A DNA stretch of 23,135 nt from assembly GCA_031459625.1 (NCBI GenBank), contig JAVKIH010000025.1, forward strand, positions 1-23,135, in the 5' to 3' direction. The notes under the pieces were generated by a model. That model saw only the letters and a list, made by a program, of their open reading frames with translations. It did not search any database and was not told the DNA's origin. Position 1 is the first letter of the stretch. Each line of letters opens with the position of its first letter. Position numbers and translations under genes: made by a program. Of this stretch, positions 1,702 through 21,063 are shown piece by piece. The DNA comes from Candidatus Geohabitans tengchongensis (GTDB lineage Bacteria > Sysuimicrobiota > Sysuimicrobiia > Sysuimicrobiales > Humicultoraceae).

Positions 1702-2559
1702 TCAAGGCAGCCGCACGTAGCGCTGCCCCGGCAGGGCCCGCACCAGGCCGCGCAGCTCCAGCACGGTCAGCGCCGCTCCCACCGTGGCCACGGGCAGCGC
1801 ACAGCGGCGGGCCAGGACGTCGATGTGCTGCGGCTCCAGCGTGAGGTGCCCGTAGAGGAGGGCCTCGGGGCCGTCCAGCGCCACGGGCTGCGGCGCCGCG
1901 GGCGGGGCGGCGCGCCGGGGGAGGCGCAGCGCGTCCAGCACGTCCTCCACGTGGCGCACCGGGGTGGCGCCCTCGTACAGGAGGCGCAGCGGCAGCGCAC
2001 TCGTCGGGGCGAAGACCGACCCCGGCACGGCCAGCACCTCCCGCCCCTGGGCCAGCGCGCACTCGGCCGTGATGAGGGCGCCGCTGTCCTCCCGTCCCTC
2101 CACCACGACGACGCCGAGGCTCAGCCCGCTGATCAGGCGGTTGCGCAGCGGGAAGTGGTGGCGCAGCGGCGGCGTCCCCGGCGGGTACTCGGAGAGCACG
2201 GCGCCGGCGGCCACCACCTGCGCCAGCAATCGCGCGTGCTCGGGCGGGTAGGCGCGGTCGGGACCGCACCCCAGCACCGCCAGCGTGCGACCGCCGGCGG
2301 CCAGCGCGCCGCGGTGGGCCGCCCCGTCGATGCCGCGGGCCAGCCCGCTCACCACCGTGACGCCGTGGCGGGCCAGGTCGCGTCCCAGCTGCTCGGCGAT
2401 GTGCAGGCCGTAGGGCGTGGCGCGCCGCGCCCCCACGACAGCCACGGCCACCGCGTCCTCGGGGCGCAGCGTGCCGCGCACGTAGAGCAACGGCGGCGGT
2501 TCGGTGAGCGTGCGCAGCGCCACCGGGTAGGCGTCGTCCTCCGGCCGCACCACCGTCAC
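1702..2559 (-). CDS. dprA: DNA-processing protein DprA (Rossmann fold + C-terminal winged helix)
   Basis: YP..L....PPPLLYVRG, VAVVGAR.ATPYG, VVSGLARGIDG.AH.GAL, FPLRNRLISGLS, SGALITA, LELRGLV. GTG 2559 follows GGAGG; GTG 2655 is an alternative start. Confidence 0.95.
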   Translation of the reverse strand: MTVVRPEDDAYPVALRTLTEPPPLLYVRGTLRPEDAVAVAVVGARRATPYGLHIAEQLGRDLARHGVTVVSGLARGIDGAAHRGALAAGGRTLAVLGCGPDRAYPPEHARLLAQVVAAGAVLSEYPPGTPPLRHHFPLRNRLISGLSLGVVVVEGREDSGALITAECALAQGREVLAVPGSVFAPTSALPLRLLYEGATPVRHVEDVLDALRLPRRAAPPAAPQPVALDGPEALLYGHLTLEPQHIDVLARRCALPVATVGAALTVLELRGLVRALPGQRYVRLP

Positions 2560-2658
2560 CGCCGCCTCCGGCCTCGGCGCCGGTGTCGGCGTCGGCCGAC
2601 CTTGCCCCCGGTCTCCCTGCCGCCCGCGCACGCCTCCTCCCTGCCGTCCGCGCACCCC

Positions 2659-4243
2659 TCACCCCGCTCCCGCCGGCCGCGCCGCTTCGTGGTCGCCCGG
2701 GCCGGCCGGCGCCGCAGGGCTCCACGCCGGCTCCCGCGGCCGGTCCAGCGCGCGGTAGGTGACCGCTTCGAGCAGGTGGTGGCGCGCGATGGCCGGCGCC
2801 CCCTCGAGGTCGGCGATGGTCCGGGCCAGGCGCACCAGCCGGTCGTGGGCGCGCGCGCTCAGCCGCAGCTGCGCCAGCGCGTCCCGCAGGAAGGCGCGGT
2901 CCTCGGCGCTGAGCCGGCAGTGGCGGCGCAGGTCGCGCGCGGTGGGTGCGGCCGCCCAGGATGCGCGCTCGCCCCGAGCGTGACGGAACGCCCGCGCCCG
3001 CGCCACCTGCGCCCGCAGGGCGGTCGAGCCCTCGCCGTCCGGTTCGGCGGTGATCTCCGCCGGGGCCAGCGCGGGCACCTCCACGTGCAGGTCGATGCGG
3101 TCGAGCAGCGGCCCGGAGACGCGGCCCAGGTAGCGGGCCACCTGCGGCGGCGTGCAGGTGCACTCCCGGCGCGGGTGGCCGTGGTAGCCGCAGGGGCAGG
3201 GGTTCATGGCGGCGACGAGGAGGAAGCGCGCGGGGTAGCGCACCGTGCCGCCGGCGCGCGCCACGGTGATGCTCCCCTCCTCCAGCGGCTCGCGCAGCGC
3301 CTCAAGCACGTCGCGGTGGACCTCGGCGAGCTCGTCGAGGAAGAGCACCCCGCCGTGCGCCAGCGTCACCTCGCCCGGGCGGCCGGCCGTGCCCAGCAGA
3401 GCGCTGCGGCTGGCGGAGTGGTGCGGGGCGCGGAAGGGACGCGCGCTGAGGAGGCCGCCGCCCGGTGGGACCAGCCCGGCCACGCTGTAGATCGTGGTCA
3501 CGTCCAGCGCCTCCTCGGGGTCGAGGGGCGGGAGGATGGAGGGCAGCCGGCGCGCCAGCATCGTCTTGCCGCTGCCGGGCGGGCCGAGCAGCAGGACGTG
3601 GTGACCGCCAGCGGCGGCCAGGACCATGGCGCGGCATGGCGCGGCGCCCCTGCCCCTGCCCCTTGACGTCGGCGAAGTCCGGACCTTCCTGGGCGGATGG
3701 CGCCCGCGCCGGCGCGACGGGCGGCACCGGCTCGCGCCCCAGTAGCCGGACCACGGCCTGGGCGAGGGAGGCGGCCGGCACGACCGTGACGCCCTCCACG
3801 ACGGCCGCCTCGGCGGCGTTGCCCTCCGGGACGACCAGGCGGCGCACGCCCAGGCGCCGCGCCAGGCGCGCGACGGCCAGCGCACCGCGGACCGGGCGGA
3901 TTCGTCCATCCAGGGAGAGCTCACCCACGACGAGCGCCCCGTCGGCCAGCGCCGGCGGAACCTGCCCGGTGGCGACGAGCAGCCCCAGGGCGATGGGCAG
4001 GTCGTAGGCGGCGCCGTCCTTGCGCAGGTCGGCCGGTGCCAGGTTCGCCAAGATGCGCCGCGCCGGGACCCGGTGGCCGGAGTTCTTCACCGCCGCGCGC
4101 ACCCGCTCGCGGGCATCCTGCTCCGAGGCGTCGGTGAGCCCGGTGATGGCGAACGCGGGCAACCCCGGCGAGACGTCGACCTCCACCTCGACTGGCACCG
4201 CCTCGATGCCTGCGAGCGTCGCGCTTCCCACACGCGCCAGCAT
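2659..4243 (-). pseudogene. comM: ComM/YifB Mg-chelatase-like AAA+ helicase, frameshifted at 3625-3644
   Basis: N-half (from ATG 4243): VEVEVDVSPGLP, NLAPADLRKDG..YDLPIA, GELSLDG, DFADVKGQ. C-half in another frame: GPPGSGKT, RPFRAPHHS, GVLFLDE, NPCPCG, SGPLLDRID, ARTIADL. Removing one 10-bp repeat copy restores a 524-aa ORF. Confidence 0.93.
3625..3644. repeat. Exact 10-bp tandem duplication (CATGGCGCGG x2) causing the comM frameshift
   Basis: ggac-catggcgcgg-catggcgcgg-cgcc read directly from the sequence. Confidence 0.95.
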
Positions 4244-4286
4244 CTCTCCCCTTTTCATCGGCCGGATGCGGCAGAATTAAGGGACG

Positions 4287-4877
4287 ATGGCGGAGAACCG
4301 GCTCCTCTCCATCGGGCTCGCCCTCCTTCTCCTGACCGTCTCCCTGGGGCTGGGGTGGCTGGCCGGGCGGCTCTTCGAGGCCGGGTCCGCCCCGACGGTG
4401 AACGAGGCGGCGCTGCCGCCGCCCCCGACGATTCCACCGGGCTCCGCTCCCGCACGGATGGTCGGCGGGCCGCGGACGCCCGGCGCCACCGCCACCGTCC
4501 GGCCGACGCGGCCGGCGCCGGGCGGGGCTCCTGCCGCAGCCGGCCCGATGTCGACGCCGACGCCGTCACCGCAAACCTCGCCGCCTCCGCCGGCCGCGCG
4601 CGCCACGCCCATCGTGCTGGGACAGAGCGAGGTGGTCTCGCCGGCGCCTGCTAGGCGTCCGCTGCACATCGTGCAGGTGGCAGTCGTGGAGACGCGGGAG
4701 GAGGCGCAAGCCCTGATGGTCCGGCTCCGGGGCCTGGGGTTTGCGCCCTACCTCGTCGCCACGCGCGAAGGGTTCGCCGTGCGCCTGGGGGCGTTCCGCC
4801 GCGCCGCACACGCCGCGGCCCTCGTCCGCCGGGCGGAGGCGGCCGGAGTGTCCGTCACGGTGATCGTGCGTCCCTGA
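4287..4877 (+). CDS. SPOR-domain protein (N-terminal TM, Pro-rich linker, C-terminal SPOR)
   Basis: Hydrophobic N-terminus, Pro/Ala/Thr linker, then HIVQVA...EEAQAL..RL...G...FAVRLGAF...AA, the SPOR pattern. Confidence 0.8.
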   Translation: MAENRLLSIGLALLLLTVSLGLGWLAGRLFEAGSAPTVNEAALPPPPTIPPGSAPARMVGGPRTPGATATVRPTRPAPGGAPAAAGPMSTPTPSPQTSPPPPAARATPIVLGQSEVVSPAPARRPLHIVQVAVVETREEAQALMVRLRGLGFAPYLVATREGFAVRLGAFRRAAHAAALVRRAEAAGVSVTVIVRP

Positions 4878-4915: not shown

Positions 4916-5467
4916 TCAGACCGGTTCCACCGGGTCGCCCACGCGGATCGTCCCGTCGCTGAGGATCGCCGCGCGCAGCCCGCCCCGGTGCACCAGGCCG
5001 CGCAGCACCCCCGGCCGGGTGAGCTGCTGCAGGTGGTGGCACGGTTCGCACAGGCCCACCCCGCGCAGGCGCACCTCGCCGACGCGGAACTCCCGGTGGA
5101 CGAAGTGGTTGAGCGGGACGCCCCGCGTGACGATGTTGCGGCGCGTCTCCCCCGGGTCGATGACGACCCCGTAGTCGCGGGCGAGCGCGTCGACCGCCTC
5201 GGCCTCGACGAGGGTGACCTGCTGGCCACCGTGGCCGTGTGGCGACGGGGCGCCCTCGTAGTAGCGGTCGCCGACCAGCCCGCGTCCGGCCTCAGCCCTG
5301 ACCTCCGTCACCGACTGCATGGGGGCGCCCGGGGCGGCGGCGATGTGGATCGATTCCACGACGCCACGTACCACCAGGGCGGGCTGGCTCGCCGACCGGG
5401 CCGCTGTGCCCCCGGTCGACCGGCCCGCCCGGCCGTGACGGAGATGGTCAGCAGCACGGTCGGCCAT
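4916..5467 (-). CDS. MOSC-domain protein
   Basis: GVVESIHI, GRGLVGDRY, QVTL, TRRNIVTRGVPLN, FRVGEVRL, CEPC, GGLRAAILSDGTIRVGDPV. Start uncertain (ATG 5467 or GTG 5374). Confidence 0.88.
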   Translation of the reverse strand: MADRAADHLRHGRAGRSTGGTAARSASQPALVVRGVVESIHIAAAPGAPMQSVTEVRAEAGRGLVGDRYYEGAPSPHGHGGQQVTLVEAEAVDALARDYGVVIDPGETRRNIVTRGVPLNHFVHREFRVGEVRLRGVGLCEPCHHLQQLTRPGVLRGLVHRGGLRAAILSDGTIRVGDPVEPV

Positions 5468-5618
5468 CGCCGGGAAGCTTTCCCCGGCGGGGCGGACCCA
5501 CCCTGCCGGTCGGGGCGCTACCCGGAACTCCTTCATGCCGGTCGGAGGGAAGTCTGCGGGAGGTCTAGGGCCGGCCCGCGCCGGGCACGAACCGATGGAC
5601 CGAGGAACGACAGCGGCC

Positions 5619-6752
5619 ATGGCTGACGACGCCGTCACGGAGGCCCGAAAGGGGGACTCGGAGGGATGGCCCCCCAGCGTCCCAGAGCGTCCCATCGCCT
5701 TCCTCCTCCTGGACGGTCTCCGCCGCCCCGGGCGAGGCAGCGACGTGCTGCTCTGCGCCCTGGGCCTCACCCTGGACGGGGAGCGTGTGCCGCTCGCCGC
5801 CCGGCCGGCCGCCCGCGAGGACGAGCACAACTGGCGCGAACTCCTGCGCGGGCTGCGCGAGCGCGGCATCGGGGGCGAGCTCGTCCTCATCGCCTCCGAC
5901 GGCCATCCGGCGTTAGTCAAAGCGGCGCAAGCCACCTTCCCGGACGTTCCGCAGCAGTTGAGCGTCCCCCACCGGCTGCTCGCGCTGGCCCGTCGCATCA
6001 GCCCGCGGTGGCGCCGCGCCTGCATGAACGAAGCGCGCCAGATCTTCACGGCGCCCGACCGCGGCACCGCCGTGGCCCGGTTCCGCGAGTGGCACGGGCG
6101 GTGGCTGCGCCTGGGCGAGCCGGCGGTGCGAACGATGGAGCCGGACCTGGCCGCCTGCCTGGCCTTCTACCGCTTCCCGCCGCACCTCTGGCCGCGCATC
6201 CGCACCGTCAGCGCCGTCGAGCAAGCCTTCAGGCACGTGCGGCGAGAGCAGGAAATCACCCGGATTCCTGAGCCGGCAGTGCCGGAGGCGACAGAGCTGG
6301 ACCGCTCCGACTTGCCCCCAGCGGAGCCGGTGGCGGTGGACCCCGAAGCGGTAGGTGCGGCAGCCCCCTGGCCTCGGGGTCCCGTGCCTGAGATGCTCCC
6401 CGACGTCGAGCCCGGGGAAAGGACAGAGCCACCTGCGCCCGTCGTCGGCCTCTCCGACACCGCGCCCGTGCTCGACCCCCAGCCCCTCTCTCCGACTGAC
6501 GCAGCCCCGGCTCAGGAGGTGTGGGCGCTCCAGGAGGTGGACCGCGAGCCCGTCTGGCCGGTCGGCCCGCAAGGGAGCATCCCGTCCGGCCGCGTCGAAC
6601 CCGGCCCCGCCGCAGCGGACGGACCACCGCAGGAGGTGCAGCCCCGCCCGGCGCTGCGCGAGGGTCTGACCAGTTGGCGCTGGGTCGCCCTGGTTGTCCT
6701 CGTCGTGGTGCTGGGGCTGGCGGCGGGCGTGGTCCTGGCCCTGCGCTCCTAG
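5619..6752 (+). CDS. IS256/Mutator-like DDE catalytic domain fused to Pro/Glu linker and C-terminal TM anchor
   Basis: FLLLDG...LG...DGER, E..W..LL..L.ERG, LIASDGHPAL..A....FP....QLSVPH, FYRFP...W..IRT.S.VE..FR.VRR match the IS256 core. C-terminus WRWVALVVLVVVLGLAAGVVLALRS. ATG 5619 follows GAGGA; ATG 5595 is an alternative. Confidence 0.8.
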   Translation: MADDAVTEARKGDSEGWPPSVPERPIAFLLLDGLRRPGRGSDVLLCALGLTLDGERVPLAARPAAREDEHNWRELLRGLRERGIGGELVLIASDGHPALVKAAQATFPDVPQQLSVPHRLLALARRISPRWRRACMNEARQIFTAPDRGTAVARFREWHGRWLRLGEPAVRTMEPDLAACLAFYRFPPHLWPRIRTVSAVEQAFRHVRREQEITRIPEPAVPEATELDRSDLPPAEPVAVDPEAVGAAAPWPRGPVPEMLPDVEPGERTEPPAPVVGLSDTAPVLDPQPLSPTDAAPAQEVWALQEVDREPVWPVGPQGSIPSGRVEPGPAAADGPPQEVQPRPALREGLTSWRWVALVVLVVVLGLAAGVVLALRS

Positions 6753-7126
6753 CCGCCCCGGTCCCCTTCTCCGAACGCATCGCGCACCACCTCGATCCGC
6801 GCCCGGCCGGCCCGCACGGCCAGCGCCACCACGTCGAACCGGCAGGGTCGGTCTGCCAGGCCCCGGGCGGCCACGAACGCCCGCGCCAGTCTGAGCAGCC
6901 GGCGTCGCTTGGCCGCGTCGACCGCCTCTGCCCCGCCGCCCGCCCGGCCGGAGCGGCGGGTCTTCACCTCCACGAAGACGACGGCTTCGCCGTCGAGGGC
7001 CACCAGGTCCAGCTCCCCCAGACGCGTCCGCAGGTTCCGGGCGATGATCCGGTACCCGCGCGCCTGGAGGTACCGGGCGGCCACCTCTTCGCCGCGCCGG
7101 CCCAGCACCTGCCGTCTTCCGCTCAC
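6749..7126 (-). CDS. yraN: YraN family (UPF0102) PD-(D/E)xK endonuclease
   Basis: LGRRGEEVAARYL..RGYRII.RN.R...GELDLVA, VFVEVKTR, CRFDVV. Confidence 0.93.
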   Translation of the reverse strand: MSGRRQVLGRRGEEVAARYLQARGYRIIARNLRTRLGELDLVALDGEAVVFVEVKTRRSGRAGGGAEAVDAAKRRRLLRLARAFVAARGLADRPCRFDVVALAVRAGRARIEVVRDAFGEGDRGG

Positions 7127-20477: not shown

Positions 20478-20742
20478 GGCGGATGCGATCGGGACGCTCC
20501 TCTCAGGATCCGGCGCTGTGTGAATCCGGCCCTGCTAGGTTCGGGGGCGGGCCGGCCGCTCCCTGGCCGCTGCGGTTCCCCGACCGCTGTGCGCGGCTCC
20601 AGCCAGGCGCGGCCACAGGCAGCTGCGGCACCACCTCCGCCTCCATCCGACGCATCCGCGGATCCGTCGAAGGGCAGAAGGGATGGCCGGCACGCCCGGG
20701 AAAAGCTAACCTCGGCTTCCCCAATCAGAGTCGAGGGTGGCG

Positions 20743-21063
20743 ATGGCGCGGCCGGAGATCCTGCGCCGGATCTGGCGCTGGTACTGGGCGTTGCTCCTGG
20801 CGAACGCACTCGACCTGCTCTTCACCTACACGGCGGTCGAGCGCGGCGTCGAGGAGGCCAACGTCCTGCTGCGGCCCATCCTGCTCACCCCCTGGCCGGC
20901 CGTGGCCAAGTTCACGGCGCTCGGCCTGCTGGCCGGTGGGCTGCTCCTGCTGGTCTGGCAGGGCGGCCGGGCGGGGCGCGTGCTGGTGATGGTGCGGGCC
21001 ACAGCGCTCGTCTACCTGCTGGTCGTCGGCTTCCACCTCCTGGGCCTGCTCCTCACGACGTAG
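20743..21063 (+). CDS. Small membrane protein, DUF5658-like
   Basis: Three hydrophobic segments and an N.LD...T......G..EAN pattern. Its stop lies 1 nt before the next gene. Confidence 0.7.
   Translation: MARPEILRRIWRWYWALLLANALDLLFTYTAVERGVEEANVLLRPILLTPWPAVAKFTALGLLAGGLLLLVWQGGRAGRVLVMVRATALVYLLVVGFHLLGLLLTT

Follow-up and report, generated by a model that had tools for sequence, protein, structure and literature searches.

Domesticated DDE transposases are familiar in eukaryotes, where they include RAG1, PiggyMac and the plant MULE-derived FAR1/FHY3 and MUSTANG. For prokaryotes, the accessible portion of a review on exaptation (PMC8987985) presents Cas1 and Cas9 as host proteins derived from mobile elements, and TldR provides a further comparator; a term search of that portion of the review returned neither DDE nor IS256. 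The sole solved relative, by sequence, of the gene analysed here is the ISCth4 transposase (6xg8), for which the available sections of the structural study (PMC7780238) assign residues 1-165 to dimerisation and end recognition, describe a loop II (360-368) that steers the end into the active site and give subterminal TGTAAA as the end motif of the IS256 family. In the related Muta1 transposase, the DDE residues and the His are each described as required in the part available of PMC5225508, and YraN is presented in the corresponding part of PMC13663708 as a soluble PD-(D/E)XK nuclease that works with ComM. In the literature covered, mostly open-access main texts, we found no description of the family reported here or of a bacterial IS256-derived or membrane-anchored domestication.

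The window, that is, the whole stretch of DNA analysed, comprises 23,135 nucleotides of contig JAVKIH010000025.1 from Candidatus Geohabitans tengchongensis. A sequence-only reading of this window had proposed that the open reading frame at 5619-6752 is a domesticated, tail-anchored IS256-type nuclease associated with the yraN-comM-dprA cluster. The features of the locus are as follows.

5619-6752, forward strand: whole gene (377 aa), IS256-derived core followed by linker and predicted C-terminal membrane helix
5694-6248, forward strand: aa 26-210, DDE core of RNase H-like fold carrying a four-helix insertion domain (PF00872, 6xg8 by sequence, model)
5712-5714, forward strand: D32, first catalytic Asp (GAC), equivalent to ISCth4 D175; 59/60 homologues
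5898-5900, forward strand: D94, second catalytic Asp (GAC), equivalent to ISCth4 D241; 59/60 homologues
5961-5972, forward strand: SxxH form of the C/DxxH motif, S115 (AGC at 5961) and H118 (CAC at 5970), equivalent to ISCth4 C262 and H265 (homologue alignment)
6219-6221, forward strand: E201, catalytic Glu (GAG), equivalent to ISCth4 E348; 59/60 in the main form, 0/15 in paralogues
6261-6665, forward strand: Pro/Glu-rich linker, approximately aa 215-349, predicted disordered (low pLDDT), variable in length and sequence
6666-6746, forward strand: predicted C-terminal membrane helix with G366-x-x-x-G370 (helix 350-376 in the model)
5471-5618, forward strand: 5′ region of the gene, without riboswitch (Rfam scan, local alignment)
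6749-7126, reverse strand: yraN (UPF0102), convergent neighbour (PF02021, E 4.8e-29)
4916-5470, reverse strand: MOSC-domain gene, divergent neighbour (PF03473, E 8.5e-15)
4287-4877, forward strand: SPOR-domain membrane protein gene (PF05036, E 4.1e-7)
2659-4258, reverse strand: comM, split over two frames in the assembly (PF13541, PF01078, PF13335)
1702-2655, reverse strand: dprA (PF02481, E 1.6e-71)

The frame is open over its 377 codons, with no internal stops, as had been stated. The proposed IS256/Mutator-like core, with Asp at 5712 and 5898 and Glu at 6219, is borne out by the codons, by spacings of 62 (D32-D94) and 107 (D94-E201) residues and by the Pfam search, in which aa 29-216 align to positions 163-354 of the 379-position PF00872 profile (E 2.9e-24). 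The start of this match at profile position 163 also confirms the loss of the long N-terminal region, and the short lead of about 30 aa before the first Asp recurs throughout the family (D32 here; residues 17-33 in 57 of 60 homologues). The IS256 equivalog NF033543 scores 110.3 bits, below its cut-off of 150. An AlphaFold2 model built on an alignment of 51 sequences (mean pLDDT 69.8; 78-97 in ten-residue blocks over aa 21-190, mostly below 50 in the linker) predicts a five-stranded RNase H-like core, the helical insertion that is a feature of PF00872, and a helix at 350-376. The best structural match of this model is again ISCth4 (Foldseek E 3.8e-11), with Z 17.6 and rmsd 3.4 over 203 residues aligned to 6xg8_A. 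Hydropathy peaks at 3.11 over aa 356-374 (19-aa window) which, together with the low-pLDDT linker and the modelled helix, agrees with the claimed Pro/Glu linker and hydrophobic C-terminal helix. Judged by hydropathy and the model, the product has the features of a tail anchor, namely a single C-terminal hydrophobic helix, preceding basic residues (on average 3.6 K/R ahead of the helix in homologues) and no N-terminal signal. The basic residues before the helix, and the RodZ_C domain that follows it in paralogues, which we take to be located outside the cytoplasm, point to a topology in which the protein most likely crosses the inner membrane once and has its core in the cytoplasm. Within the helix, G366 and G370 are invariant (51/51).

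The gene lacks the hallmarks of an insertion sequence. The genome's own IS256, on a separate contig (C1), carries 29-nt inverted repeats containing TGTAAA and is only 38% identical to ORF 5619-6752 over the core. Unlike this element, and in keeping with the reported lack of room for a right IS end, ORF 5619-6752 is flanked by no inverted-repeat pair that our search could find; across 84 loci the IS256 end pattern matched four, every one a transposase locus. No sequence counterpart of the dimerisation, NDB and HTH domains or of loop II of ISCth4 is found in the product. Signs of mobility are likewise absent, the main form being present as a single copy in each of 15 genomes and at the same site in four genera, and none of 55 candidates from viral contigs matches the family. 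Database records label the family's proteins as transposases. On C1, the co-resident IS256 (G000; L003:1232-2539) has intact repeats and a transposase frame seemingly shifted near its 5′ end, and another IS256 fragment lies at the start of contig C2.

We surveyed 94 genomes of the phylum, 34 from the source family and 60 others. Matches at E 1e-28 or better occur in 17 genomes, all within the family (17/34, against 0/60 outside it). The main form occurs once per genome in 15 of the 34 family genomes, spanning 7 of 12 genera; in one of these (G008) it ends at the contig end, so that the tail is seen in 14 of the 15. With this query the main form was not found in 19 family genomes, several of them more than 90% complete. 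Named homologue records are labelled CSP1-3 or Armatimonadota, and CSP1-3 corresponds to Sysuimicrobiota in the accessible part of PMC11604079, where transposases are not mentioned.

Conservation was assessed on an alignment of 66 proteins, 60 of them of the main form, with P0002 left out as identical to the query. The first Asp is kept in 59 of the 60, the second Asp in 59, the His in 60 and the Glu in 59; two of the three misses, including that at the first Asp, are fragments, and the first Asp column is also Asp in 36 of 36 transposases. The earlier description of the SVPH motif was right in that the His is kept and mistaken in suggesting a recent single Cys-to-Ser change, since Ser is a family trait (54 homologues, with Cys in the other 6). 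A hydrophobic tail ending no more than 5 residues from the C-terminus is present in 59 of the 60; full-length homologues carry 61-241 aa after the catalytic Glu, and orthologue start codons sit about 20 codons ahead of the core. By the NG86 method, core dN/dS is 0.11-0.29 in all five congeneric pairs (one with the unpublished genome G018), and linker dN/dS is 0.35-1.04 in these pairs and 0.35-1.65 over all comparisons. Against the nearest relative, the core shows 17 synonymous and 4 non-synonymous codon changes (dN/dS 0.08), and the linker 7 and 45, respectively. In a tree of 77 cores, for which the bootstrap is not fully settled, the 41 rows other than transposases all group together in a single clade (100/100, on a branch of 0.8), and the co-resident IS256 is not sister to it. 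Homologous tails, a core under purifying selection with its triad kept and an identity of 38% to the resident element together support the reading of a domesticated, tail-anchored IS256 core; given purifying selection, single copy, vertical inheritance and the loss of element ends, we are nearly certain that ORF 5619-6752 is a domesticated transposase. Among 8000 candidates of 603-2000 aa we found no longer fused forms, which is weak evidence, and the ESM Atlas returned, at the level of leads, only generic Mutator clusters (0.80-0.81). Outside the family, P0109 and P0145 resemble IS256 but have a shortened or re-fused N-terminal part, which in one of them is hydrophobic; they are possibly separate domestications or fragments.

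The association with yraN, comM and dprA is weak. The locus does adjoin yraN, but the gene is antisense to both rnhB-yraN and comM-dprA-topA, the MOSC and SPOR genes intervene between it and comM, and the main form lies elsewhere in 6 of 15 genomes, from three other genera. It adjoins yraN in seven genomes, and in two others, whose contigs are broken (one the unpublished G008), it is found next to the comM end of the cluster, so that the yraN-comM position accounts for 9 of the 15 genomes, in four genera and one nested subclade (93/80). Among the other sites, the gene lies behind Ku-TPR with ligD divergent in two genera (G021 and G003), and likewise at L099 and L102; the remainder are near M20 peptidase, PilZ, DUF2207 and amidohydrolase genes. 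yraN itself is present in 34 of 34 family genomes and, in a check of the order of yraN and comM in genomes without the gene, none of 30 yraN loci had a match to comM within 1.5 kb. The CTAG at 6749-6752 is indeed common to both stops here and is not a family feature; stops overlap at 1 of 12 related loci, with gaps of 3-4906 nt in the rest, which rules out the overlap as a constraint. No conserved partner gene was found beside the main form. The neighbours hint at DNA handling and do not fix a pathway.

Several further features of the window were recorded. The two frames of comM result from a 10-bp tandem duplication at 3625-3644; a contig of run X1 that is identical in all other respects lacks this duplication, as does a close relative (L085), and the split is either an assembly error or a strain-level mutation. 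The SPOR protein (4287-4877) comprises a small domain, a Pro-rich linker and an anchor in the reverse order of ORF 5619-6752, and, at the threshold applied, had a match at just one of the 41 related loci. A small DUF5658 membrane protein gene lies at 20737-21063.

Just upstream of the gene, Rfam identifies a CL00126 (c-di-GMP-I clan) aptamer in 8 of 15 orthologue genomes (including the unpublished G018), in 6 of 7 genera and at both genomic positions; it is missing at ORF 5619-6752 and at six other orthologues. In the 5′ region of ORF 5619-6752, neither an Rfam E-value scan nor local alignment detected a riboswitch remnant, and no promoter or terminator consensus was found. In 14 of 18 distinct leaders, a set containing some near-copies and counted without a shuffled control, the 3′ strand of the aptamer can alternatively form part of a hairpin with a U-rich run behind it, so that aptamer and terminator are mutually exclusive (an ON arrangement); one example leader folds at z -3.1. 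The available part of PMC9262584 describes an ON arrangement of the same kind for the pilM riboswitch and relates that cGAMP switches were originally annotated as c-di-GMP switches. The CL00126 assignment thus stands at clan level and does not fix the ligand. In the L099, L118 and L120 leaders, A replaces G at the start of the GGCAAAC stretch, a position that presumably decides ligand specificity, and this A may shift preference towards cGAMP.

A sample of the regulon in six genomes (7 of 7 loci in the window's own genome and 26 of 50 matches in five relatives) places behind the switch genes for pilin-like proteins, PilB/MshEN, a sigma factor with a roadblock protein, GGDEF-EAL, HD, CAP, GH18, transport-binding and secreted proteins. 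Six GGDEF matches and a comEC gene were identified in the window's genome. Two of its seven c-di-GMP-I riboswitches (G000, L077-L083) are ahead of pilin-like clusters, and one precedes a sigma factor-roadblock pair that recurs behind a switch in relatives. In the sole RNA run that contains the region, coverage is even, at about 24, along an 8.9-kb contig; this resembles DNA and makes the run uninformative on expression.

Of the 185 columns of the core, 44 reach a conservation of at least 98%, and all four catalytic residues are among them, whereas only 6 of 20 acidic columns are. At 40 transposase-conserved positions, 30 are kept in the main form and 10 are changed; the changes include C115S, R121L (the equivalent of the ISCth4 DNA contact R268), N122A and T197V, several of them near the active site. 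The ISCth4 flanking/spacer DNA contacts R279 and K287 align with R132 and R140, which are 100% and 96% conserved, and the mean net charge of the core is +9. The family clade also contains paralogues with three architectures: core, membrane helix and RodZ_C; degenerate tail-anchored; and without a clear tail. The catalytic Glu is absent in all 15 paralogues examined, which nevertheless strongly conserve the insertion domain, indicating that the module is useful without catalysis. The main form keeps E201, N198, F204, R208 and E67; the paralogues mostly lose them while retaining the fold, so the fold alone does not require these residues. The three paralogue groups may share one origin (support 81/88), in which case the Glu loss may be a single event. 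From these conserved residues the core is predicted to be catalytically active, which we judge somewhat probable, and it is on their strength that we use the word nuclease.

The paralogues at L018:1510-2868, L019:796-2166 and L027:1501-2805 combine the core, a membrane helix and RodZ_C and have lost the Glu; two of them precede a peptidase S58 gene. Degenerate paralogues, both tailed and tail-less, were recorded at L028, L029, L030 and L033 (the first two followed by a tRNA gene) and as P0073, P0075, P0077-P0079, P0083 and P0086. Genera g4 and g5 share a recurrent Ku-TPR gene pair (L064:7059-8713, L065:7286-9036, L164).

Our main reading, to which we assign a probability of about one half, is that the protein cuts DNA irrespective of sequence, is tethered to the membrane and belongs to a pilus/surface regulon. 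It would go back to a single event, in the common ancestor of some members of one CSP1-3 (Sysuimicrobiota) family, in which the catalytic half of an IS256 transposase was made into a host gene. The tail would lie in the inner membrane, with the long linker leaving the core room to move on the cytoplasmic side, and the GxxxG helix would pair two copies, a task once that of the lost dimerisation domain. The core would bind DNA independently of sequence through its conserved arginines and hydrolyse phosphodiester bonds with two metal ions, equivalent to the nicking step of transposition with strand transfer absent, and a cyclic dinucleotide would raise expression alongside that of pilin and surface genes. 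Its most likely job would be to nick or trim DNA reaching the membrane, for instance DNA brought by the pilus or competence machinery. That the substrate is DNA at the membrane we consider an even proposition; that it is specifically incoming DNA is doubtful. A fuller version, in which a second-messenger-induced membrane nuclease built from a DDE core would screen or trim entering DNA while dead copies were reused in envelope proteins (the RodZ_C fusions), is tentative. In favour of the main reading, both gene positions adjoin DNA-processing genes and the genome has comEC. Against it stand the insertion domain kept by Glu-less paralogues, the altered neighbours of the active site, the lack of the riboswitch here and at six orthologues, the antisense orientation to yraN-comM and the different location in 6 of 15 genomes, and a regulon whose members include sigma factors and transport-binding proteins that have nothing to do with DNA.

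Part of this evidence would also suit a pseudo-enzyme that does not cut but binds DNA or a protein partner and fastens it to the membrane, its acidic residues holding metal or phosphate, with nucleoid anchoring or a RodZ-like cytoskeletal link as variants. The remodelled surroundings of the active site, the loss of the Glu in 15 of 15 paralogues despite a retained insertion domain, and the seven paralogues in which the core occupies the place of HTH_25 in the genome's own RodZ all point that way. The main form, however, keeps all four catalytic residues across about 55-65% identity, and keeps exactly the residues that the paralogues lose, and we regard such a tether as unlikely. A role as an end-processing partner of Ku and LigD, or as a surveillance nuclease against incoming plasmid or phage DNA, appears more improbable still. 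It draws on the placement directly downstream of Ku-TPR with ligD divergent at the four loci named above, on Ku in all 15 carriers and on a soluble, tail-less paralogue 7-8 kb from Ku in G001 and G019. Yet Ku is also found in 10 genomes without the main form and eight of the nine Ku-negative genomes belong to one genus, so that this co-occurrence is not independent of phylogeny and was rejected as a functional signal; moreover, a riboswitch-terminator stands between the gene and Ku-TPR, the two are apart in G004 and G041 of the same genus, and PADLOC anti-phage models match none of six proteins.

Riboswitch control, the GGDEF-EAL and HD-domain genes of the regulon, a PilZ gene no more than 7 kb away at 6 of the 41 loci inspected and the remodelled rim of the active site would fit a two-metal phosphodiesterase acting on a small or RNA substrate, such as pGpG or a cyclic dinucleotide, with feedback under the riboswitch. 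A conserved arginine surface and the insertion domain suit a polymer substrate better, and we know of no precedent for small-substrate activity in this fold, which leaves this explanation with little probability. That the protein still acts as a recombinase or integrase, with borrowed DNA-binding or in trans on IS256 ends, might be read from its intact triad and from the IS256 with intact inverted repeats in the same genome; it is highly improbable in view of the missing dimerisation, NDB and HTH domains and loop II, a resident IS that is not sister to the family and the want of a conserved adjoining partner gene. A decaying IS remnant with a chance read-through tail would agree with the transposase label in databases and with a linker that evolves near neutrally, and is refuted by an architecture shared by 59 of 60 homologues, by purifying selection on a single-copy gene, by synteny across four genera and by a conserved start and riboswitch.

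Whatever its precise activity, the family is a real, conserved and new variety of domesticated transposase and fails as an insertion sequence. Its origin, selection and regulation are all readable from genomes, and active-looking and dead paralogues stand side by side as built-in controls. A 190-aa DDE core freed of end recognition would reveal what the fold does alone, and the annotation 'transposase' at present conceals such genes. The case extends to one family in an uncultured phylum, with a function that is predicted from sequence. Should the membrane nuclease reading hold, with a DNA-screening enzyme and RodZ_C-fused dead copies, the gene would have founded a small protein family, and insertion sequences would be seen to enter membrane biology by a new route.

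Compared with ISCth4 TnpA (6xg8/6xgw/6xgx; PF00872, NF033543), the product of ORF 5619-6752 shares the RNase H-like core and four-helix insertion domain, the same D-D-E with 107 aa from the second Asp to the Glu, the His of C/DxxH and some flanking-DNA contacts. It differs in lacking the DD, NDB and HTH domains (ISCth4 1-165) and the loop II/C-terminal part, in a shorter first hairpin (60-65 residues between the two Asp, mostly 67-69 in transposases) and in the changes of Cys to Ser and RN to LA. Relative to IS256 elements, it has gained a linker and a membrane helix, has no inverted repeats and is single copy. RodZ, of which the window's genome has an ordinary copy, is organised as HTH_25, membrane helix and RodZ_C (PF13464), and the fused paralogues as core, membrane helix and RodZ_C; the likeness extends to ORF 5619-6752 in that a cytoplasmic module sits on a single-pass anchor, but its product has neither HTH_25 nor RodZ_C by Pfam and is not RodZ. 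The membrane-bound competence nucleases EndA and NucA, which face outward, and YraN are comparable in the role proposed here, which concerns transformation or DNA close to the membrane, and have folds unrelated to the IS256 core. Like RAG1, PiggyMac, FAR1/FHY3, MUSTANG, Cas1, Cas9 and TldR, the family represents a mobile-element enzyme fixed under purifying selection, and catalytic and dead descendants both exist in those systems, as active-looking and dead ones do here. Whereas they have kept DNA- or RNA-guided recognition and are soluble, the present family retains the catalytic half only, is bacterial and DDE-type, and has combined this core with a membrane anchor and a riboswitch.
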